From positions 20,989-84,988 of the forward strand of contig JADYZV010000052.1 of assembly GCA_020852965.1 (NCBI GenBank): a stretch of 64,000 nucleotides of DNA, given 5' to 3'. This stretch comes from Pirellulaceae bacterium (GTDB lineage: Bacteria > Planctomycetota > Planctomycetia > Pirellulales > Pirellulaceae). Positions within the stretch are counted from its first letter, which is position 1, and each line of letters opens with the position of its first letter. Of the stretch, positions 4,106-25,235 are shown piece after piece. The notes beneath the pieces were generated by a model, which had not been told where the DNA came from, did not search any database, and was given only the letters and a program-made list of their open reading frames with translations. The translations under genes and the position numbers were made by a program.

Positions 4106-4116
4106 GGTCACCCTTT

Positions 4117-4180
4117 AATGTGGCCCGACGCTCCGCGTCGGTGTTCTCTTTTCTAATGTGGCCCGACGCTCCGCCGTCGG
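4117..4180 (+). repeat. Two copies of a REP-like hairpin, AATGTGG-C-CCGACGC-TCC-GCGTCGG
   Basis: Copies at 4117-4141 and 4155-4180; further copies at 16430-16453 (-), 16464-16487 (-) and 18664-18688 (+). Confidence 0.85.
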
Positions 4181-9017: not shown

Positions 9018-10688
9018 CTAACCACTCTCGCTCAGAAGCAAACTGCGATTGATCGCGGCCACCAAACCCAAAATCGACGCTTTGGTAATGGACTTGTGCT
9101 GGCCGACGCCAAACAGTTCTTGCCCATCGGCAGTCTTCACTAATACATAGGCGGCGGCAGAGCTATCGCTGCCCGCCTCCATGGCGTGTTCGTGATAGTC
9201 TTGAATGTCGACCGCCAAACCGAATCGTTCGGTCAAGGCATGGACCAAGGCGTCCAGAGGGCCGGCACCTTGGCCGGTAATCTCCTGCTTGTCACCTTGG
9301 TAGCTGACCGTGAAGCGATGCCGCTCTTGATCTTCGATGTCACAGTCGACAGGTGCGTGCGCGTGATAGATCAGCGTCTGCGTAGGTTTCATGTACGTTT
9401 CGACAAACTTGGCCGCCACATCGCGGGCTGACATCTCTTGGCCTGTCGCATCGGTGACCTTCTGAACGACTTGACTAAAGGCGATTTGCAAGCGGCGTGG
9501 CAGGTGGAAACCCAGTTGGTTCTCGACCAGGTAGGCCACCCCCCCTTTGCCAGACTGAGAATTGACGCGAATGACCGGATCGTATTGTCGACCAATGTCG
9601 ACTGGGTCAATTGTCAAATAGGGAACCTCGAAGCGCTCTTGCCCCGACTCCTTCAACGCCGCAAAACCCTTCTTAATTGCATCTTGGTGTGATCCGGAAA
9701 ATGCGGTGAAGACCAAGTCGCCAGAGTAGGGTGTGCGCTCGTGAACTCTCAATTCCGTGCAGAATTCTGCGATACGGCGGATCTCTTTCAAGTTCGAGAA
9801 ATCGAGTCCCGAATCGACACCTTGCGTCGTCAAGTTTAAAGCCATGGTAACGATATCCAGATTCCCTGTCCGTTCACCATTGCCGAACAGCGTTCCCTCG
9901 ACCCGCTCGCCACCAGCCAACATGCCCAGCTCGGAAGCTGCGATGCCGGTTCCGCGATCGTTGTGAGTATGCAGTGAAATGATCGTCTGCTGTCGATAGT
10001 TGAAGCTACGACAGAACAGTTCAATTTGATCGGCATACACGTTCGGCGTCGTCAATTCGACGGTGGAGGGCAAGTTGATGATCGTCTTGTTGTCCACGGT
10101 AGGCTGCCACACATCGCACACCGCCTCGCAGATCTCGACCGCAAAATCGATTTCGGTTCCCGTGAAACTTTCGGGAGAATACTGGAAGCGGATCTGTCCC
10201 GATCCACGCTCGGCTTTGGCCAGTTCGTCGATCCATCGCGCGCCATCGACGGCCATGCGCACAATATCCGCTTTTTCTGCATGGAAGACCACGCGACGTT
10301 GCAGGGTGGATGTCGAATTGTACAAATGCACAATCGCCGACTTGGCACCGCGTATCGCCTCGAAGGTACGCTCGATTAGTGGTCGGCGAGCTTGGACCAG
10401 AACTTGAATCGTGACGTCGTCCGGAATCAATTGCTGGTCGATCAGTTCGCGGACAAAGGTAAAGTCGGTCTCGGAGGCGGCAGGGAAACCGACTTCGATT
10501 TCCTTGAAGCCGATTTGTAACAGAGTACGAAACAGCTCCATCTTTTTGACAGGTCCCATCGGATTGATTAGCGCCTGATTACCATCGCGCAAATCGACCG
10601 AGCACCAAATCGGAGCCCGCGTCAGAGTCCGGTTGGGCCATGTGCGGTCGGGCAAACTTATCGGCGGAAAGGGGACGTATTTGGCCAT
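9018..10688 (-). CDS. leuA: 2-isopropylmalate synthase (yeast/actinobacterial LeuA type)
   Basis: PIWCSVDLRDGNQAL, EIEVGFP, SLHTHNDRGT, LFGNGERTGN, AFSGSHQDAIKKG and a C-terminal regulatory domain. Confidence 0.96.
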   Translation of the reverse strand: MAKYVPFPPISLPDRTWPNRTLTRAPIWCSVDLRDGNQALINPMGPVKKMELFRTLLQIGFKEIEVGFPAASETDFTFVRELIDQQLIPDDVTIQVLVQARRPLIERTFEAIRGAKSAIVHLYNSTSTLQRRVVFHAEKADIVRMAVDGARWIDELAKAERGSGQIRFQYSPESFTGTEIDFAVEICEAVCDVWQPTVDNKTIINLPSTVELTTPNVYADQIELFCRSFNYRQQTIISLHTHNDRGTGIAASELGMLAGGERVEGTLFGNGERTGNLDIVTMALNLTTQGVDSGLDFSNLKEIRRIAEFCTELRVHERTPYSGDLVFTAFSGSHQDAIKKGFAALKESGQERFEVPYLTIDPVDIGRQYDPVIRVNSQSGKGGVAYLVENQLGFHLPRRLQIAFSQVVQKVTDATGQEMSARDVAAKFVETYMKPTQTLIYHAHAPVDCDIEDQERHRFTVSYQGDKQEITGQGAGPLDALVHALTERFGLAVDIQDYHEHAMEAGSDSSAAAYVLVKTADGQELFGVGQHKSITKASILGLVAAINRSLLLSESG

Positions 10689-12695: not shown

Positions 12696-15600
12696 CTAGT
12701 TCTGTGTGGCCAACAACTCTTTCAAAGCGGCTTGTTTGGCGTCACCGGAGTGGAAGTCGAAGGCGCGAAAGTAGCGCAGTTGTTCCTGCTCGCTGGGAGT
12801 GGTGGCGATAATCTCAGCCAAGTAGTGACACGCCTTGGGCGAGCGGCAGCGCCAAACGATATCGCGGCCGCCCGGCGTATTCCATTTGTCTCCAACTCGG
12901 CCTAGCCAAGCTTGGAAGAAGCTATCCCATTGCTTGTCGGCACCGATGCCGAGCGATTCGATGTACCAGCGATCGCTGCCATCATGTTGCACGGCTAGTT
13001 CGGCCCATAGCTGGGCCGCTTGCGGATTTTTATTGTGCCGCAGGGCGATGGCCAATTCACGGCGCACTGCCGCCGACGGATCACGTTTCAACTGCTCGAC
13101 GATCGGCAGCACGTCGAGCCCATGCTCGCGAGCTATGCGGATACCAACGATACGTAGGTTCGCATCGGCGTCGGCCAGTGCCGTTTGCACCTGTTGCTGT
13201 GGATCGCCGCTGACGATGGCCAACTGCCATAGTGCGCGGGCTCGCAGCGAATCGTTTGGGGCAGAAGTCGAGGCTTCTTCAAGAGCGGCGGTTGCTGACT
13301 TGCCCATGCTCTGCAGCGCGCGCTGTGCTAGGAAGCGGGTAGCCAAATTCGGATTCATCAGCGACTCGGTGGCCGACTTGGCTGTCGAGAAGTCGGCCTT
13401 GGGAAATCGGTAGCCCTTGTGTCCGGTGGGAACGATGCGGAAAATGCGCCCATGCTGAGGGTCGCCCATGGCATGGCCACCGACGCCAGGGTCGTACCAG
13501 TCGGCTACGAACAACGAACCGTCGGGGGCGGCACAAACGTCTACGGGACGGAACCAAGGATCGTTGACACCCTGGACCATGTTCAGAATGGTCGCCGTGT
13601 AGCCCGCGCCATCTTGTTCGACTGGATACGCTCGGACCACATTGGGCCCTGGATCGGTGTGAATGATCTGATTTCGGAATTGTTTGGGGAGCAGCGTACC
13701 TTCGTAAAAACAAATTCCGGTTGGTGAGCCCGCACCGGTCTGCAAAATGTTTGGAACCACACCGGGGTCGTTCAAGTGCCAATGTTGCAGAGGAATCTCC
13801 GCCTCCAACCCGGTTCGCGGAACCTGCCATGCGTCACCGGTTAGTTCGTCGCGATATCCGTAGTTGCCGTACTCCATGACGAAGTTGATCCGCGTGCCGC
13901 GATTGCCATCGTCGTCGTTGTCCGATTGCCACATGTTTCCAAACGAATCGACGCACAGCTCCCAATTGTTGCGGAAATTCCAACCCAGAGTTTCCAGGTC
14001 GCTGCCATCCACGTTGCAGCGGAATACCATCCCCTGTTGATAGGGATGACGACTGTCGTCGACGACATTGCCAGCCTTGTCGACGATGGTATCGCCGCCT
14101 GCCGACTTGAGCTGCTTGCCTTCGTTGCCGAAATTGAAATAGAGTTTGCCATCGGGACCGACGTTAAAAGCATGGATGCCGTGATCGTGCTGAACCCCCG
14201 AGATACCGGTAAACAATGGGCGTTTGGAGTCGGGGATTAGATCGTTGTTTTCATCGGTGAAGACCAGCACTTGAGAGCCGGCTGAAACGAAGATCTGATT
14301 GCCGAGGACGGTGACTCCGTGTGGCGAGTCGATGTCGGTGCCTTGATAGAATACGGTTTGATGCTCAGCACTACCGTCGCCATCGCGATCTTCAAGGACC
14401 AAGATGCGATCACCTTCGCTTCGCTCTGGGTTGTTCGGATTGCGAAAGTGGCGATAGTTGACCGACTCGCAAACCCACACGCGTCCCAAGTGATCGACGT
14501 CGATGCTGGTGGGACTGAGCAACTGCGGCTCAGTTGCGAAGACTTGGACTTCGAGTCCATCAGCCACGTCGAAACCGGCCACTGCGCGACTCGGGTCGTG
14601 CGACGCATCAATGATGACAGATGCGGCTTGCTTCGCCGCTCGATTGCCTTCTGCCGGGTCGGATGGCTCTGCGTTGTCGCTGCGGCGCAGGCTGGCCGTG
14701 TACTCGACCACGTCGATGAGATTCTGCAGCGACAGTGCCTTCTGCAAATCGGCTGGCATCAACGACACCGACTGTTTCTTTAAGTCGTCGACATCGGCGC
14801 GCTCGACGGTCGTATCGATCCCTTCGGCATTGCGAATCGTTAGCGATTGGTCGTTCTGATTCATCAACAATCCCGTAAGCACCTGTCCGTCGGCGGTGAG
14901 GAGTGTGTACGTTTCATAGTTATGGCTGACTGCCGCGCTGGGATTGAGAATGGCTAGAAACATATCTTCACGCGCCAGCTTGCTACCGATCTCCGACAGG
15001 TCGGGCCCGATCTCTTTTCCTTCTCCATGGACCTTGTGGCATTTGCTACAAGTGCCGGTGGTGGTGAAGACCTGCTGGCCGGCTTCCGCGTTGCCGCGTC
15101 GTTTGGCTAGCTCTTGAATCGGCGGGATGGCTTCCGACGTAGCGGTGGCTGGTGGCTTGAGCAGCTTGGCGGCAGCGTTCTTGATTTGCTCATTGGTAGA
15201 ACCCAGTAGTGCGTCGGTCACAGCGAACTGGATATCTTCTGTCACTTGGCCGGTTTGGGCCATTTCAAGCAACGCTTGTTGGCCGGCTTCGGAACGCCCC
15301 AGCGCGGCGGCAGCGGAGCAGCGCAGTTGCCGATTGCGCGCGGTATCGTGGATGATCGACAAAAGGAATTCGCGCGCGGCGAGTTCGTTGACATAGCCCA
15401 ATGCACTGACTGCCGCAGCGGCTTGTGGCTCGTCGGCTTGCTCAATGGCTGATTGGATCGCGGGCAGCTTGTGTTGACTGACCAATATCTTGGCCGCTTC
15501 GACGCCTAGGGTATTGAAGGGGACCGCAGTTACCAACTTGAGCCATTGTTCGGTCTGGTCCAAGACTCCCAGTTTCTTGGCGACCTCCAAGTACTCCGGC

Positions 15601-15809
15601 GTCCCACTTTTGCGTTCGAGAAAGCGCAGCACCGCTGCGCGCTCGTTGGGGTACTGGGCTAACGTTCCGGAAGGCAGACGCAATAGTGCTTCCACGACGG
15701 CGTGATCGTGCGCCACGGTTGGCTCGTGAGCGCGGATGGCCGCAATGTTTGATAGGGCTGCTCCAAGCAGGAAGGCTAGGCTGCAAAGAGGGGCCAAGTT
15801 GAATCGCAT
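12696..15809 (-). CDS. PVC-type heme-binding CxxCH / membrane-bound dehydrogenase-domain protein with HEAT repeats
   Basis: Signal peptide, CSKCH heme domain (GPDLSEIG..LNPSA), beta-propeller dehydrogenase domain (FATEP..DHLGRVWV, DNDDDG, DWYDPGVGGH) and HEAT repeats. Confidence 0.9.
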   Translation of the reverse strand: MRFNLAPLCSLAFLLGAALSNIAAIRAHEPTVAHDHAVVEALLRLPSGTLAQYPNERAAVLRFLERKSGTPEYLEVAKKLGVLDQTEQWLKLVTAVPFNTLGVEAAKILVSQHKLPAIQSAIEQADEPQAAAAVSALGYVNELAAREFLLSIIHDTARNRQLRCSAAAALGRSEAGQQALLEMAQTGQVTEDIQFAVTDALLGSTNEQIKNAAAKLLKPPATATSEAIPPIQELAKRRGNAEAGQQVFTTTGTCSKCHKVHGEGKEIGPDLSEIGSKLAREDMFLAILNPSAAVSHNYETYTLLTADGQVLTGLLMNQNDQSLTIRNAEGIDTTVERADVDDLKKQSVSLMPADLQKALSLQNLIDVVEYTASLRRSDNAEPSDPAEGNRAAKQAASVIIDASHDPSRAVAGFDVADGLEVQVFATEPQLLSPTSIDVDHLGRVWVCESVNYRHFRNPNNPERSEGDRILVLEDRDGDGSAEHQTVFYQGTDIDSPHGVTVLGNQIFVSAGSQVLVFTDENNDLIPDSKRPLFTGISGVQHDHGIHAFNVGPDGKLYFNFGNEGKQLKSAGGDTIVDKAGNVVDDSRHPYQQGMVFRCNVDGSDLETLGWNFRNNWELCVDSFGNMWQSDNDDDGNRGTRINFVMEYGNYGYRDELTGDAWQVPRTGLEAEIPLQHWHLNDPGVVPNILQTGAGSPTGICFYEGTLLPKQFRNQIIHTDPGPNVVRAYPVEQDGAGYTATILNMVQGVNDPWFRPVDVCAAPDGSLFVADWYDPGVGGHAMGDPQHGRIFRIVPTGHKGYRFPKADFSTAKSATESLMNPNLATRFLAQRALQSMGKSATAALEEASTSAPNDSLRARALWQLAIVSGDPQQQVQTALADADANLRIVGIRIAREHGLDVLPIVEQLKRDPSAAVRRELAIALRHNKNPQAAQLWAELAVQHDGSDRWYIESLGIGADKQWDSFFQAWLGRVGDKWNTPGGRDIVWRCRSPKACHYLAEIIATTPSEQEQLRYFRAFDFHSGDAKQAALKELLATQN

Positions 15810-16021
15810 GCAAAAGCTACCTATGGAGGAGGAAACGGAGGATACGGGAGCGGTCCACGACAAGTTTGCTTAACTCGTGACGGGGTAGAATTGTAATCCA
15901 TTGTAAATTTTACAAGTCTTTTTTTCAAAAGTGCAGTAGCGACAAGCTGTTTGTTTTCACCAGCTTACCTAAGCCGGCGTTAAAACGGGCTTCGATCTGA
16001 AATTCTCAGGAGAATTCTCCT

Positions 16022-16038
16022 TTGGCACGCCGCGTGCT
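16022..16038 (+). promoter_or_regulatory. Sigma54 (-24/-12) promoter
   Basis: TTGGCACG-CCGC-GTGCT gives exact GG-N10-GC spacing with one mismatch to TTGC. Palindrome TTGTAAA-T-TTTACAA lies ~110 bp upstream (15901-15915). Confidence 0.7.
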
Positions 16039-16048
16039 TTACTGGAGT

Positions 16049-16412
16049 CCTCAGTGGCATAACACCGAGGCCCGTCGCGGAGCTAGGTTGCCACACCAAG
16101 AGTGCGGATGCATTTGACCAATGCCCGTTAAGTAGAATCGAGGGAACTCGACGAGCCGGTAATTCCTCCGCCGGTAGTCGATAGAGCGTTTGGAATTGCG
16201 AAGCTGGACGACAGCGAGCCACGGTCGGCCAGTTCGCAGGCAGGGTCCAAGCGACACGAACAGGGATGCCCCCCGTGACCTTAGAGGCAAAGTCGCCGGT
16301 GTATGGTGACAAATTAATTTAGCTGCTTGCAGCCTAGGCCCGCTTTTCACGGTTGGAAAGGGTCCGCTCGGGCGAGCCTTCAATGGAGGCTCTCCGAGCG
16401 GGCCCTTTTTCG
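16049..16412 (+). ncRNA. Candidate structured sigma54-dependent small RNA (~360 nt)
   Basis: Bounded by the sigma54 promoter and an intrinsic terminator. No plus-strand ORF. Many predicted stem-loops, two with clear GGA tetraloops. Confidence 0.55.
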
Positions 16413-16415
16413 TTT
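16357..16415 (+). terminator. Intrinsic terminator
   Basis: Stem AAAGGGTCCGCTCGG/CCGAGCGGGCCCTTT with an inner GAGCCT/AGGCTC hairpin, followed by TTTTTCGTTT. Confidence 0.85.
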
Positions 16416-16712
16416 CCTATCAGCACTTGCGACGCGGAGCGTCGAGCCACATTCACTCACTTGCGACGCGGAGCGTCGAGCCACATTCGCTGTGGCCCGT
16501 CGCGTCCCTACGAAGTACACAGCCAAAAATGCTATGGTCATCAGCAACATTGAGAAAAGATCCGCAGGGGTGACTATGGCTGCCAAGCACATACACCCAA
16601 CAATCGCCAACATCGGACGATAGTACCGTGATCGACCGATGAACATCATCAACGCGGCAGCCCCGACTACGAATGTCGCGGCAAGTTCTAGATATCCAAT
16701 TTGTAATAGCAT
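16380..16712 (-). CDS. Small membrane protein (3 TM); 3' end runs through a REP duplication
   Basis: Three hydrophobic segments. AAIVTPADLFSMLLM resembles the TatC C-terminal motif. The last ~35 codons are repeat- and terminator-derived. Confidence 0.6.
   Translation of the reverse strand: MLLQIGYLELAATFVVGAAALMMFIGRSRYYRPMLAIVGCMCLAAIVTPADLFSMLLMTIAFLAVYFVGTRRATANVARRSASQVSECGSTLRVASADRKRKRARSESLH
16424..16488 (-). repeat. 34-bp direct duplication containing REP hairpin CGACGC-GGA-GCGTCG
   Basis: Reverse complement of the family at 4117. Confidence 0.85.
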
Positions 16713-17129
16713 CGCATTCAGCTCCAGAAGTGACGGTTTTTGAAAAAACTCGCCGAATGCATTCCGTCGACCAATTCGTCACGGAGATGAAGCGATTGTT
16801 AGTTGCATTCTAGCAAACTGACTGAGCTGAAACAATTATTGGGTCCGACAGTCAACTGAACAAGAAGGACGCGTTTGCAGTTATGTTTGGGTTGGCAAAA
16901 CACTAATCTATTTAACTGCGCAACGTGGTCGCGCAGGTGATGAGCCAACCCAAACGATGCGGCGGCACCGTTGCGGGGTACCAACGGGAGATCAGCCCGT
17001 CCTGGCCACGCTAGCCTGACCTAGGCGCGCTGACTCGCATAAACTGACCACTCGCTGGGCATCAAAACAGATCCAAAAGTAGCTCGCTGGTCACCTTCCG
17101 AAAGTCACGTAGGGGACCAACGCACTACA

Positions 17130-17216: not shown

Positions 17217-18665
17217 ATGTCCCAACCAATTCAGTTACAAAAAGTAGTTTCGGTCGCTTGGTGGAAACACCTCAATAGCTATCACTGGTTCGTATTTGCC
17301 ATGGCCGCACTGGCTTGGCTGTTCGATTGTTTGGACCAGCAGATATTCATTCTCTTCCGCAACGATGCCTTGAAGACGCTGCTTCCGCCCGATTGGGACG
17401 TGAAGGCATACGGTGGTTACGCCACGTCGATCTTCGTGGCCGGCTGGGCTACAGGGGGCTTGATCTTCGGTTCGGTCGGAGATCGCATCGGTCGCGCCAA
17501 GACATTGACGCTAACCGTATTGCTGTACTCGGTCTTTACCGGTCTGACGGCGCTGTCGACGTCGTGGGTCGACTTTGCCATCTATCGCTTCATCACAGGA
17601 CTGGGAGTGGGTGGTGTGTTTGGTTTGGCGGTTGCACTTATCGCTGATACGCTGCCCGACGAGTCGCGACCCGGCGCTCTGGGAATGTTGCAGGCCCTCT
17701 CGGCAATTGGCAACATTACCGCTGGGCTGATCAGCATGTGGTTGGGCAGCCTGATTACCAGCGGCTCCAATTCCATCACCGCCGACACGGCATGGAAATA
17801 CGCATTCCTGTTCGGTGCCATTCCCGCCTTCTTGTGCGTGTTTATTCAATTGCGCATGAGAGAACCCGAAAAGTGGGTCAAGGCCAAGGAGGCAGGCAAG
17901 ATAACTGGTGTCAAGTTTGGCTCGTACGTTTCGCTGCTTGGCCCCGGTCGGTGGCGCAAGCCTGCTCTACTGGGCATGTTGCTGTGCATCGCAGGAGTGA
18001 TCGGGCTATGGGGGATCGGCTTCTTTGCTCCCGAGTTGGTCGGTGACGTCATCGCCACTTCGGTCCGTGCCGAAGCGCTCAAAGCTTCGGTAGCCTTATC
18101 GCCGGATGAGCTTGCCCAGCGCATATCGAGTCAATCGGCCTACTACAAAGGGCTCAATGGGATCATCCAAAACATCGGTGCATTTTTCGGTATGCTCGCC
18201 TTTTCGTGGTTAGCCCAGCGAGCTGGTCGCAAGCCAGCCTTTGTGGTTGCATTCATCGGTGCATTCATCGCCACCAACGTCTACTTCCAAATGTTCAAGA
18301 GCGTCGATCAGATTTGGATGAGTGGCGTGATGGGCTTTTTCCAACTGGCGCTATTCGCCGGCTTTGCAATTTACTTGCCGGAGCTTTTCCCGACGCGATT
18401 GCGCAGCACAGGAACCAGCTTTTGCTACAACGTCGGGCGATTTCTGGCAGCCACCGGTCCCTTTACCCTAGGGATGTTGCAGCACAATTTGGGCGAGTCG
18501 GCGATGGCCAAACTACCGGAGACGGCCGATGCGGCAGCCAAAGCCGCCGCCAAGCTTGGTGCGTTTCGCGAGGCCACTTCCTGGGTCAGCCTAGTGTTTA
18601 TCCTTGGGATTGTCGTCGTGTTCTTCTTGCCTGAAACCAAAGGCAAGCCGATGCCCGAAGACTAA
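17217..18665 (+). CDS. MFS transporter
   Basis: ~12 TM helices, GSVGDRIGRAK motif A, YRFITGLGVGG and ELFPTRLRSTG. Confidence 0.93.
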   Translation: MSQPIQLQKVVSVAWWKHLNSYHWFVFAMAALAWLFDCLDQQIFILFRNDALKTLLPPDWDVKAYGGYATSIFVAGWATGGLIFGSVGDRIGRAKTLTLTVLLYSVFTGLTALSTSWVDFAIYRFITGLGVGGVFGLAVALIADTLPDESRPGALGMLQALSAIGNITAGLISMWLGSLITSGSNSITADTAWKYAFLFGAIPAFLCVFIQLRMREPEKWVKAKEAGKITGVKFGSYVSLLGPGRWRKPALLGMLLCIAGVIGLWGIGFFAPELVGDVIATSVRAEALKASVALSPDELAQRISSQSAYYKGLNGIIQNIGAFFGMLAFSWLAQRAGRKPAFVVAFIGAFIATNVYFQMFKSVDQIWMSGVMGFFQLALFAGFAIYLPELFPTRLRSTGTSFCYNVGRFLAATGPFTLGMLQHNLGESAMAKLPETADAAAKAAAKLGAFREATSWVSLVFILGIVVVFFLPETKGKPMPED

Positions 18666-18789
18666 TGTGGCCCGACGCTCCGCGTCGGTATTCCCCTATT
18701 CCCCTATTCCCGGCCCTCAGCCCCCTGCCAGCTTGTCTGGCAGGAGCCAAAGTTTTGCAAATAGAAATTAGTTTTGAAATCGTCCGCCG

Positions 18790-21119: not shown

Positions 21120-22406
21120 TTAGATGCGGTATGGCTCGCGCAGCGCTTCGGAGCGTAGGCGATTGGCTTCGACGTCGTCGATGAACTCCATCTTATCGGT
21201 GTCCAAGTTGACTTGGCGATCGAGGAACAGCGCCACGTTGGCGGCATGGCAGGCGATGTGCGCGCGCGCAGCCGCTTCGGGATTCCCCTTGGGTTGGCTG
21301 CGCGTTTTGACGCAGTCGAGGAAATCGCGGACGTGGAACGTCGCTGGATATCCGTCAACTTCTTCCACCGTGCGCCCGGCCAATAGTTCAGGTGAGCTGA
21401 GTACCATTTTACCGCTGTCACCCGCTTCAACCCAACCGGTTTCGCCTTCGAAGCGTACGGGGCAAGAGCCGAGTGGTATCCAGCCCTTTTCGCGGAAAAT
21501 CAACTCGGTTCCATTGGCGTAGGTAGAGACCAGCTCGTCATCTTTCTTGGCATTGTACTGGATCGGTGGTGGGCAATCGCCCATAGCCCATTGGCACAAG
21601 TCGACGCAGTGCGAGCCCCATTCGAGTACGCCACCACCAACGAGACCGCCCCCTTTTTCAAAGTGAAATCCATTGAGCAATTGTGGGTTGAAGGGACGCC
21701 ACGCAGCGGGGCCGAGATAGGTATCCCAGTCGATAACCTCTGGGTCCGGTGCAGGTTCGGCTGGTAGCCAGCCGCTGGTGACGGCTTGCATGCCGGCTGG
21801 GTGGGCATAGACTTTTTTGAGTTTGCCGAGCTTGCCCGTACGAGCTAGGTAGCAGGCGAAGGCGAAGTGGGGCAGATTTCTGCGCTGAGTGCCAGCTTGG
21901 AAAATGCGCGCGGTGCGTCGCATGGTGTCGGCCAACGCGAGACTCTGAATAATGTTTTTCGTACAAGGTTTTTCACAGTACATGTCTTTGCCCGCATGCG
22001 CGGCAGCGACCGCCATCGTGCAATGCCAGTTGGGGCCCGTGGCGATCAGCACGGCGTCGATATCACTGCGATCGAGCAGTTCGCGGAAATCGCGAATCAT
22101 AGCGCAGTTCTGATTGCCCTGTTTATCGTCGACGATTTTTTTGACTGCCAAGCGGCGTTGTTCTTTGATGTCACACACGGCCGCGAATTGCACGTCGGAT
22201 TGTTCGAGAAAGCAGCCTAGGTCGTAGGTGCCGCGATTGCCAATGCCGATACCACCTACCACAATACGTTCGCTGGGAGGTGTCGCGCCATCGCGACCGA
22301 TGGCGGAGCTGGGGATGATGGTCGGCAGGGCAACGGCCGCCGCCGCAGTCGAGGCGGATGCTTTCAAAAAGTTTCTGCGATTCCGCGTTTTGCCAAGGTG
22401 GGCCAT
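21120..22406 (-). CDS. Tat-exported Gfo/Idh/MocA family oxidoreductase
   Basis: RRNFLK twin-arginine signal, GIGNRG, IATGPNWH, YCEKP and FQAGTQRR. Confidence 0.93.
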   Translation of the reverse strand: MAHLGKTRNRRNFLKASASTAAAAVALPTIIPSSAIGRDGATPPSERIVVGGIGIGNRGTYDLGCFLEQSDVQFAAVCDIKEQRRLAVKKIVDDKQGNQNCAMIRDFRELLDRSDIDAVLIATGPNWHCTMAVAAAHAGKDMYCEKPCTKNIIQSLALADTMRRTARIFQAGTQRRNLPHFAFACYLARTGKLGKLKKVYAHPAGMQAVTSGWLPAEPAPDPEVIDWDTYLGPAAWRPFNPQLLNGFHFEKGGGLVGGGVLEWGSHCVDLCQWAMGDCPPPIQYNAKKDDELVSTYANGTELIFREKGWIPLGSCPVRFEGETGWVEAGDSGKMVLSSPELLAGRTVEEVDGYPATFHVRDFLDCVKTRSQPKGNPEAAARAHIACHAANVALFLDRQVNLDTDKMEFIDDVEANRLRSEALREPYRI

Positions 22407-23457: not shown

Positions 23458-25235
23458 GAGAGTGCTGACTTAACGTCAATCTTACCGCATAATAGGAATA
23501 GGTGCTTGGCGTCTTATTTGGGAGGCATTGCGATGTTGATGGAGCAGCCCTGGCGTTATCGTTTGACTGAATTCGACCATAAGGTGTTCGATGCAATTGT
23601 GCCGCAGGAGCATTTGTTGATCGACGTTGACCGCGTAATCGATTGGTCGTCATTCACCGGCATTTTGGAAGAATATTATTCTCGAAATCGCGGCCAGCCA
23701 GCGATTCTGCCGGTGATTATGTTGAAATTGGAATTTTTGCGGTACATGTACAACTTGTCGGATCGTCAAGTAATGGAGCGAGCCGACACGGATATGATCT
23801 TCCGTTGGTTTCTGAAGGTTCCCATTAGCTTTCAATTGCCTGATGCTAGCGTGTTGTCCAAGTTCCGCGGTCGACTGGGTACGGATGGATTCAAGCGAGT
23901 TTTTAGCCAACTGGTGGTGTTGGCTCGTCAATCAGGCTTAGTTAAGGATCGCTTGCGACTAAAGGACGCGACCCATGTTATCGCCAATATCGCGGTACCT
24001 CCAGTAATCAAGTTGATCGCCCAAATTCGCGATCGACTTCTCAAAGACCTTGAATGTTTCGATCCCGAGTTAGCAACTGGATTTCGCGTGGCCGTAGAAT
24101 CGCTACGGGAATCGTGCAAGGGAGCCACGGTAGCTATCCAGCTTGAGCAGCGAGTAGGTCTTTTAGCTGATGTTGTGCAGGCCGCTGCCAAGCTGCCGAT
24201 TCCCGTTGATGTAGAGACCAACGTTGCTTGGCACAACTTACGTGAAACGCTGGCTGTTGCTCAGAAGATCTTGTACGACCAAGCGAATCCCAAGGAAGGG
24301 CGTCGGACAGTGAGTATCGTCGACAGCGAAGCGCGGCGAGGTCAACACGGCGATTGGTACGATGGCTATGTCGTCGATGTGATGATGGACGCAGATAGCG
24401 AGCTAATTACGGAAATACAGGTGCTCGAAGCTGGTGGCGACGAAGCAAAAAGTGCAGTGGAATTGATTCGCAATGAACAGTCCACGCATGGCAATAAAAT
24501 AGAACAGTTCTCCATTGACGGAGCGGGCTTCAATGGCAAGATGCTGCGTGCCTGCGAAGAACTCGATGTGGCAGTGATAGTTCCTCCGAAACCGATTCCG
24601 CAAGGCAGCGTATTTCCCAACACAGACTTTGCGTTATCTGAAGACGGCAAGACGGTAACTTGTCCGGCGGGCGAGCAATCAAGCTACGCACAGGATGACA
24701 AACGCAAGAACGGTACGATCTTTCGATTCAAGCGTGAACAGTGCGATAGCTGTCCGTTAGTTGCGCAGTGCATGCGCAAGCCAGGCACTGGCGCATTTGG
24801 AAGATCAGTACAGAAGAATGACTACCAAGGCGAATACGATCGCGCCCGCGCCAAGGCAGCGACCGACGAGTACCAGGCCGTTCGTCGCGAGCATCCTGCG
24901 ATAGAACGGAAACTCAACGATATCGCCAATCACCACAAGGGGCGTCGAGCGCGTTATTGGACGCGAGCAAAAGTCGCCGCTCAACAGTTCATGACGGCAT
25001 TCACTGTTAACGCAAAACGCATGACCAAACTACCAACCGAAGAGCTCCGTACTGTCACAGCCTAACGACTTCGATTAAGGGAAGATATATGCCCAAACAA
25101 AGAGGAACTGCTCCCTAAATACAGAAGAGTTGGCTACTGCCAACAGCAAAGGAGGTGCGCGACGGCGAAACCAAAAAATAAAATTAATAACCGTCTACAG
25201 GCACCCACACATATTGCTGTTAAGTCAGCACTCTC
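23458..25235 (+). mobile_element. IS1182-family insertion sequence, 1778 bp
   Basis: Perfect 17-bp terminal inverted repeats GAGAGTGCTGACTTAAC at 23458-23474 and 25219-25235 enclose one transposase. No flanking direct repeat is visible. Confidence 0.85.
23533..25065 (+). CDS. DDE transposase (DUF772-like N-terminus, Cys-rich DDE_Tnp_1_6-like C-terminus)
   Basis: MLKLEFLRYMYNLSDRQV, KDATH, IDGAG, CPAG..CDSCPL..C and RREHPAIERK; GGAGG lies upstream of ATG 23533. Confidence 0.9.
   Translation: MLMEQPWRYRLTEFDHKVFDAIVPQEHLLIDVDRVIDWSSFTGILEEYYSRNRGQPAILPVIMLKLEFLRYMYNLSDRQVMERADTDMIFRWFLKVPISFQLPDASVLSKFRGRLGTDGFKRVFSQLVVLARQSGLVKDRLRLKDATHVIANIAVPPVIKLIAQIRDRLLKDLECFDPELATGFRVAVESLRESCKGATVAIQLEQRVGLLADVVQAAAKLPIPVDVETNVAWHNLRETLAVAQKILYDQANPKEGRRTVSIVDSEARRGQHGDWYDGYVVDVMMDADSELITEIQVLEAGGDEAKSAVELIRNEQSTHGNKIEQFSIDGAGFNGKMLRACEELDVAVIVPPKPIPQGSVFPNTDFALSEDGKTVTCPAGEQSSYAQDDKRKNGTIFRFKREQCDSCPLVAQCMRKPGTGAFGRSVQKNDYQGEYDRARAKAATDEYQAVRREHPAIERKLNDIANHHKGRRARYWTRAKVAAQQFMTAFTVNAKRMTKLPTEELRTVTA

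Follow-up and report, generated by a model that had tools for sequence, protein, structure and literature searches.

A stand-alone, highly expressed structured RNA gene with conserved sigma-54-type and enhancer-type signals in Pirellulaceae

In a stretch of 64,000 nucleotides (nt) from a Pirellulaceae bacterium (the window in what follows, i.e. the whole of the DNA analyzed; assembly GCA_020852965.1, contig JADYZV010000052.1, positions 20,989 to 84,988 of the forward strand), we studied a locus that comprises, in order on the plus strand, a predicted upstream activator site, a sigma-54-type promoter, a non-coding RNA of ~350 nt and an intrinsic terminator. This locus is a stand-alone, highly expressed gene for a structured RNA and carries conserved sigma-54-type and enhancer-type DNA signals; on balance, we lean towards regarding it as belonging to a new family of abundant structured non-coding RNAs of Pirellulaceae. 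An original prediction, made from the sequence alone, had described a palindrome, an AT-rich tract, a promoter, several stems, GGA motifs and a terminator at this site, all of which are present at the coordinates it gave, and had read them as a protein-sponge small RNA (sRNA). As a single-sequence case this was suggestive and not compelling, given that promoter-like matches and GGA motifs occur at chance level and that the folding energy is driven by the terminator.

The search for homologues originated from one homologous contig in RNA data that had the exact 16-mer CCGTGACCTTAGAGGC in common with the window. This 16-mer, which spans two helices of the RNA (Pa and Pb, described below), was scanned against one genome per species and yielded 112 loci, 20 of which align with the RNA; all of these are Pirellulaceae or Planctomycetia metagenome-assembled genomes (MAGs), three being Aureliella. 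The independent 5' block of the RNA, when scanned against metagenomes, returned only three loci, which were added to the family; three divergent ones (L100, L032 and L048; 72–74 bits) came from a search with a covariance model of the 3' domain. The family totals 27 members (the window and 26 homologous loci) in three subfamilies, namely A (window type, 14 members), B (compact, with a mature RNA of ~306 nt, 10 members) and C (Lake-type, 3 members). Two of the gene copies, L010 and L091, lie on separate contigs of one MAG (JTS-AC147), and L091 is near-identical, including its neighbours, to L025 of another MAG; the pair could reflect either a genuine second gene copy or an artefact of binning.

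In agreement with the original prediction, which recognized no known RNA family here, Rfam 15 gave no match within the window at the gathering score and only terminator-like noise between 15700 and 16600 at E-values up to 10, ten homologous loci were likewise blank, and ARAGORN detected no tRNA or tmRNA. Known RNA families were rejected on these grounds, as none of RNase P RNA, tmRNA, 6S, signal recognition particle RNA, Qrr, GlmY/Z, CrcZ or the ribozymes had an Rfam or ARAGORN match in the window or the ten homologous loci. Literature searches for a described Planctomycete sRNA found none, and the words sRNA, non-coding and riboswitch are all absent from a 2025 review of Planctomycetota; the family is apparently the first candidate for a regulatory RNA to be described from this phylum.

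The promoter element TGGCACGCCGCGTGCT (16023–16038, plus strand) carries the −24 GG at 16024–25 and the −12 GC at 16036–37, i.e. GG and GC dinucleotides ten bases apart in TGGCAC-N5-TTGCW, and predicts a primary start at ~16048–16050. It is the sole perfect match to TGGCAC-N5-KTGCW in the window. Since matches with one mismatch occur at chance level (4 found versus 5.5 expected), a single sequence is no proof of a promoter; it is the conservation across homologues that argues for it. Indeed, TGGCAY-N6-TGCW is retained in 25/25 homologues having upstream sequence, with T1, G2, G3, A5, T13, G14 and C15 invariant in all 25, C4 present in 24/25 and positions 7–12 variable. No contig from the RNA runs spans the element. 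Given the invariant contacts, the free spacer and the lack of an RNA contig over the element, we attribute the constraint to sigma-54 contacts and not to a transcribed element.

Upstream of the promoter lies a predicted activator site (15891–15915, plus strand), which consists of a half-site TTGTAA (15891–15896), 4 nt and the palindrome TTGTAAATTTTACAA (15901–15915), whose centre is ~117 bp upstream of the −24 GG. By chance, 0.04 matches to the pattern TTGTAA-N3-TTACAA would be expected in the 64 kb window, which contains a single one. Among the homologous loci, 19 carry the exact pattern, each of them one time (20 genes with the window), as against 0/89 unrelated loci from the same scan, while the three loci of subfamily C carry the variant TTGCAAAGATTACAA. 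The distance from the palindrome to the GG is 113–145 bp in most loci, and a third half-site, TTGYAA, is found 4 nt further upstream in many homologues, as it is in the window. Both the position, within the ~80–150 bp at which activator sites lie upstream, and the family specificity of the palindrome are consistent with a putative enhancer-type site. Palindrome and promoter, as listed in the prediction, are both present and conserved across homologues. We consider it likely that sigma-54 RNA polymerase would start at ~16049 after an enhancer-binding protein has bound TTGTAA-N3-TTACAA and the third half-site. For Pirellula and Planctomycetia, the literature reports sigma-54 and enhancer-binding proteins as well as csrA (PMC12316311, which cites Studholme and Dixon 2004).

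A sigma-70-like promoter, TTGAAA-17-TACAAT (15900–15928, minus strand), faces the divergent DUF7133/cytochrome c/HEAT gene (12696–15863). As this promoter overlaps the palindrome, activator binding could also affect the divergent gene. The latter likely starts at the ATG at 15809, ahead of a signal-peptide-like sequence, and its 5' untranslated region is C/U-rich and lacks GGAGG.

We then turned to public RNA data in the form of Logan contigs. A near-identical stretch is contained in many small metatranscriptomes, which stem from wastewater, activated sludge and bioreactors. Contigs of nine RNA runs, which belong to at least six studies, cover only 16064/16069 to 16333/16365, with zero mismatches and a word depth of 8–34, and the flanks have a depth of 0–5; DNA runs cover the region continuously and evenly. 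The RNA is 5–10 times deeper than any neighbouring transcript or is the sole transcript in 20 kb: between 6001 and 26000, two runs have no other contig, and in the other two it is the deepest one (16 versus 3 and 24 versus 2–5.5). Its expression suffices to dominate its own locus in metatranscriptomes from wastewater and bioreactors and, as described below for relatives, freshwater. The raw-read run X69 held no reads on the RNA, and there were no Nanopore RNA runs.

All window-type contigs begin at 16064–16069, irrespective of depth, and in one run an Illumina read-2-type adapter is joined directly to 16066; such an adapter is fused at the RNA 5' end in two studies, one with the window type and one with the relative L114 (at 2571). 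Subfamily B contigs from unrelated freshwater runs begin at positions 2566–2568 of L114, which correspond to the same first C of CCGAGG, and subfamily B relatives show the same transcript boundaries in freshwater runs. One subfamily B contig (run X63, library type not on record) ends at the U-tract of the terminator. From the contig 5' ends and this U-tract-ending contig, we place the mature RNA of ~350 nt at ~16065–16413 on the plus strand, with the first C of the CCGAGG block at one end and the terminator U-tract at the other.

The prediction had put the 5' end near 16049. This position may be the primary start, but the accumulating species starts at 16064–16069, ~16 nt further downstream, at the conserved block CCGAGG. 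Transcripts from sigma-54 promoters start about 11–13 nt after the −12 GC, whereas the GC and the abundant 5' end are separated by 28 nt in the window and by 24 nt in L114, and the distance from the GC to the block ranges from 24 to 73 nt among members. Because the abundant end lies ~16 nt past the expected start and relatives start at the same base, we infer that the 5' end is processed. A putative leader (16049–16064, plus strand), which is not part of the abundant species and contains the 5' strand of stem P1 (GTGGCA, 16054–16059), would probably be removed, so that the stable species would begin at the conserved hairpin CCGAGG.

With regard to the strand, the promoter and the U-tract lie on the plus strand in all members, and the adapter orientation agrees. 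These signals, together with the contigs of the nine RNA runs, bear out the discrete, abundant plus-strand non-coding RNA that had been foreseen. They also bear on the possibility that there is no RNA gene here and that the region instead holds a minus-strand protein gene, which had been raised with the prediction as a potential refutation, or the untranslated tail of the minus-strand open reading frame (ORF) at 16380–16712. Two 110-aa minus-strand ORFs (15980–16312 and 16051–16383) do overlap the region, and antisense ORFs cluster among close relatives. However, neither overlapping ORF has a Pfam match, the frames are broken by indels that are not multiples of three and by a variable middle of 100–350 nt, conservation tracks base pairs, and the RNA contigs stop short of 16380, so that we assign this explanation a practically negligible probability.

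The mature RNA starts with a conserved 5' block, CCGAGGCCCGTCGCGGAGCTAGG (16065–16087, plus strand), a predicted hairpin, which is followed by TGCCAC (16089–16094), the 3' strand of P1; block and strand together span 16065–16094. P1 encloses the block and is GTGGCA/TGCCAC in subfamily A, swapped to GCGAGC/GCTCGC in subfamily B. The block, CCRAGGCCCRYNGCGGWGCTAGG, is common to subfamilies A and B and absent from subfamily C. In 22 homologues retrieved via the other end of the RNA, 18 of its 23 positions are invariant, with variation only in the predicted loop and bulge. In L084, an Aureliella helgolandensis MAG, the block ACACCGAGGCCCATTGCGGAGCTAGGT is tandemly duplicated, giving an RNA of ~510 nt (761–1270).

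The middle of the RNA is variable (100–350 nt) and usually holds one hairpin with a C/U-rich loop and one with a GAGCCAC loop. In the window, the former is TCGAC-GAG-CCGG/CCGG-TA-GTCGA (16148–16181, plus strand), with the loop TAATTCCTCCG at 16160–16170, and is conserved in the closest relatives; the latter is GCGAAGCTGG/CCAGTTCGC (16198–16237, plus strand), with the loop motif GAGCCAC at 16216–16222. Subfamilies A and B both have a hairpin with a GAGCCAY loop at the corresponding position, and the motif is strongly overrepresented (26 occurrences versus 2.2 expected). In subfamily B, which lacks TGCCAC in P1, GAGCCAC sits in the terminator loop. One member, L069, has an insertion of ~220 nt within the variable middle.

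The universal core of the family is the 3' domain, comprising a three-way junction (Pa/Pb/H1/H2) and the terminator. Its core in the window (16253–16356, plus strand; 143 bits with the covariance model R1) includes a conserved GGA site, ACAGGGATG (16260–16268). It further contains helix Pa (CCGTGA 16273–78/TCACGG 16347–52), helix Pb (G84, G86–C88/G38–C41, i.e. GAGGC with the GCCC of AGGCCCG), hairpin H1 (16292–16310), an A-rich linker, hairpin H2 (16322–16333) and AGGCCCG (16336–16342), all on the plus strand. The adjoining terminator (16357–16415, plus strand) has a G+C-rich stem at 16357–16408 (arms 16357–16371 and 16394–16408) followed by TTTTTCGTTT, and its U-tract is found on the plus strand in 27/27 members; the strong intrinsic terminator that had been predicted is thus present, and the X63 homologue contig ends there. 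Compensatory changes affect 1/6 pairs of Pa, 1/4 of Pb, 6/6 of H1, 5/5 of H2 and 9/15 of the terminator.

Overall, in a model-fitted alignment of the 27 sequences, whose fitting favours the result, 96.3% of the cells are paired versus 86.0% in shuffles, and compensatory change is seen in 22/36 pairs, a number that 0/500 shuffles reach. The covariation score is 0.334 versus 0.133 in shuffles and at most 0.085 when the partners are slid; sliding them by 1–3 columns leaves 32–49% pairing. In an unfitted MAFFT alignment, 14/36 pairs still show compensatory change. Base pairs are therefore retained via compensatory changes, as expected of a structured RNA, and the comparison with relatives that had been proposed as a check, for promoter and stems alike, turned out in favour of the RNA gene. 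Not all of the stems drawn from the single sequence withstood this comparison. GTGGCA/TGCCAC, GCGAAGCTGG/CCAGTTCGC, GTCGCC/GGTGAC and GCTGC/GCAGC are supported by homologues, whereas AGTGC-GGAT-GCATT and TCGAG-GGAA-CTCGA are unconserved, the latter competing with the conserved helix TCGAC 16148–52/GTCGA 16177–81.

We rejected a long-range helix that would join the 5' block to the 3' sequence AGGCCCGCUUUUCACGG and had been suggested by the single-sequence minimum free energy fold and by RNAalifold on five close relatives. The G-to-A change in CCRAGG (L074, L107 and L079) and the CCCGC-to-CCCAG change (L107 and L069) are uncompensated, part of the helix uses GCAGCC of the covarying H2, and subfamily C has no block. 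Two further pairings were likewise rejected, one in which the terminator 3' arm would bind the two AGGCCCG repeats and the other an anti-terminator CCC..UUUUC/GGAAAGGG, neither of which covaries when the terminator changes (L107, L069 and L074).

The two unconserved stems were those that displayed GGA in tetraloops. The prediction had seen in the RNA a sponge of the CsrB/RsmZ type, which would sequester CsrA via many looped GGA motifs. All eight GGA motifs are present in the window, including CAGGGATG at 16261–16268; however, 7.6 are expected, and only ACAnGGAnG (16260–16268) is conserved. This site resembles the CsrA consensus obtained by systematic evolution of ligands by exponential enrichment and is found in 26/27 members, and CsrA genes exist in Planctomycetia (PMC12316311). 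Yet it is a single site outside any conserved loop, predicted to be paired with UCCUUG in subfamily B, and one site does not make a sponge. Moreover, over 24 homologues GGA is at chance level (147 observed versus 156 expected from dinucleotide shuffles), ANGGA amounts to 48 versus 37 expected, and the two GGA tetraloops are specific to the window. We consequently hold a CsrA sponge to be extremely unlikely.

The position of the conserved junction directly beside the terminator raises the question of whether the RNA could be a cis-acting leader, i.e. a riboswitch or attenuator in which the junction senses a ligand or protein and sets termination versus read-through. The alternative pairing CCC..UUUUC/GGAAAGGG can be drawn, an MFS transporter gene lies downstream on the same strand in 7/8 loci having one nearby, and the contig of run X27 (16132 to ~16477) passes through the terminator, from which we conclude that some read-through or DNA carry-over exists. 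On the other hand, L107 and L074 carry changes that disrupt the alternative pairing and are not compensated, while the terminator covaries there. The downstream gene is convergent in ~11/25 loci, sometimes 2–70 nt past the terminator, and in the window the next plus-strand gene is 800 nt away. Neighbouring genes are unrelated across loci (MFS transporter, NDH-2, CobW-like GTPase, DciA and alkaline phosphatase), and those that are co-directional and downstream have no consistent function. Given these unrelated and often convergent downstream genes, a cis-acting leader is very unlikely.

A stand-alone RNA of this kind would likely act in trans as a riboregulator. As to how it might do so, base pairing with target mRNAs, either Hfq-type or chaperone-independent, is a serious if doubtful rival to the mode that we favour below. 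The seed, a conserved single-stranded element, could lie in the C/U-rich loop (TAATTCCTCCG), in the 5' block or in the GCCAC loops, and the 3' domain and U-tail would then be a module for stability or for a chaperone. Across homologues, CCTCC/TCCTC motifs exceed expectation three-fold (34 observed versus 11.6 expected) and usually lie in a hairpin loop, an A/U-rich linker precedes a hairpin, the terminator has a U-tail, and base pairing is the mode of most known sigma-54-dependent sRNAs, such as Qrr. However, the C/U-rich loop is missing in L075, L101, L010, L070 and L045, the 5' block does not occur in subfamily C, and the 5' untranslated region of the neighbouring gene is devoid of a Shine-Dalgarno-like GGAGG. 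The strongest conservation concerns helices and junctions of invariant sequence and no short free seed.

Tentatively, we therefore favour protein binding, which would entail titrating or scaffolding, as the likeliest mode. Our preference for a decoy or scaffold, in the manner of GlmY or CrcZ, over seed pairing is based on the conservation of fixed-sequence helices and junctions and of repeated motifs, between which large insertions are tolerated. Candidate contacts would be these helices and junctions of invariant sequence, along with AGGCCC (present twice) and the GAGCCAC loops; CsrA is probably not the partner. A bolder and unlikely version of this idea is that the invariant three-way junction Pa/Pb/H1/H2, which contains CCUUAGAGGC and AGGCCCG, forms together with the 5' hairpin a specific pocket that would accommodate either a metabolite or a dedicated protein. 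In that case, the RNA would represent a new class of ribonucleoprotein or ligand-sensing riboregulator, possibly matured via a new site-specific (or even self-) cleavage at the base of the 5' hairpin, with P1 as processing signal.

Several points weigh against parts of this interpretation. Signature motifs of enhancer-binding proteins, RpoN, CsrA or Hfq were found in no ORF of the window or the loci, and neither rpoN nor an enhancer-binding-protein gene lies in the window or any locus. The expression data are Logan contigs, which are directionless and of flattened depth, and the X27 contig crosses the terminator. The abundant 5' end lies 24–28 nt after the GC instead of ~12 nt, so that both the sigma-54 start and the processing step are deduced. 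The apparent invariance of Pa and Pb is inflated by the retrieval of homologues via the exact 16-mer, even though the divergent L113, retrieved via the 5' block, has 5/16 bases of the 16-mer altered and retains all four helices. The covariation rests on few independent events, the effective sequence number being as small as 2.14. The folding-energy z-score of −4.3 for the whole stretch is mostly terminator-derived, as it falls to −0.6 once the terminator is removed, meaning that the RNA body is thermodynamically not unusual. Lastly, the support for the protein-binding mode is the conservation pattern only.

Directly after the terminator, two tandem 34-nt copies of an element resembling repetitive extragenic palindromes (REP-like; 16424–16491) lie outside the RNA family and are specific to this genome. 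The element, GCGACGCGGAGCGTCGAGCCACATTC, forms a hairpin GACGC-GGA-GCGTC followed by GAGCCAC, a motif that it has in common with the RNA loops. It has four copies in the window, further ones being at 4116–4141 and 18663–18688 (both on the minus strand), and one copy lies at the stop codon of an MFS gene. The element is absent from all 115 loci and present in other, well-expressed metatranscriptome contigs. The minus-strand ORF at 16380–16712 encodes 110 hydrophobic amino acids, and its 3' part crosses the REP-like repeats into the terminator hairpin; its sole, weak match, a TatC-like one with E = 0.001, falls short of the cut-off. RNA contigs of low depth span 16533–16762. Further away, the window contains a transposase gene with DUF772 and DDE_Tnp_1_6 domains (23506–25065, plus strand), a GFO/IDH/MocA oxidoreductase gene near it (21120–22406, minus strand) and the 2-isopropylmalate synthase gene leuA (9018–10688, minus strand).

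The family is a new structured RNA to add to Rfam, and its circuit parts, namely putative activator site, sigma-54-type promoter, presumed processing site and terminator, are complete and testable. It opens a way into an undescribed signalling pathway of Pirellulaceae, for which the palindrome could be used to fish the enhancer-binding protein, and, as a marker transcript, the RNA could point to these bacteria in RNA data from the environment.

Sigma-54-dependent sRNAs are an already known kind, exemplified by Qrr, GlmY and CrcZ; what is new is the family. The Qrr RNAs of Vibrio, driven by sigma-54 and LuxO, are likewise stand-alone sRNA genes with a −24/−12 promoter and an intrinsic terminator at their end, and their upstream inverted-repeat activator site has a similar layout (TTGCA-N3-TGCAA for LuxO versus TTGTAA-N3-TTACAA here). 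However, they are ~100 nt long, Hfq-dependent and equipped with a conserved single-stranded seed, whereas the RNA described here is ~350 nt long, has a three-way-junction core and probable 5' processing, belongs to another phylum and has no Rfam match to Qrr. GlmY and GlmZ of Enterobacteria, which depend on sigma-54 and GlrR, resemble it in being driven by an enhancer-binding protein and in having a processed species as their active form (both presumed features in our case). GlmY is a decoy for the protein RapZ, which it binds via its structure and not via a seed, and by analogy this is the mode that we favour here. They differ in that GlmY is processed at its 3' end and our RNA presumably at its 5' end, in the GlrR sites (TGTC-N10-GACA) and in the absence of an Rfam match. 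CrcZ and CrcY of Pseudomonas, which depend on sigma-54 and CbrB and act as an Hfq/Crc sponge, are close in size (~400 nt), sigma-54 dependence (predicted in our case), great abundance and repeated short motifs; their motifs are A-rich CA motifs in place of AGGCCC and GAGCCAC, and again Rfam gave no match. With CsrB, RsmZ and RsmY the RNA has in common that it is abundant, structured and terminator-ended, and it carries one CsrA-site-like site, but it shows neither GGA enrichment nor conserved GGA loops, and those RNAs use sigma-70 promoters and GacA/UvrY boxes. Finally, the orphan RNAs raiA, OLE, ROOL and GOLLD also combine a conserved multi-helix core, invariant junction nucleotides and high expression; compared to them, and with no Rfam match to any, the RNA reported here is smaller, so far confined to Pirellulaceae and endowed with a defined, presumably inducible promoter.

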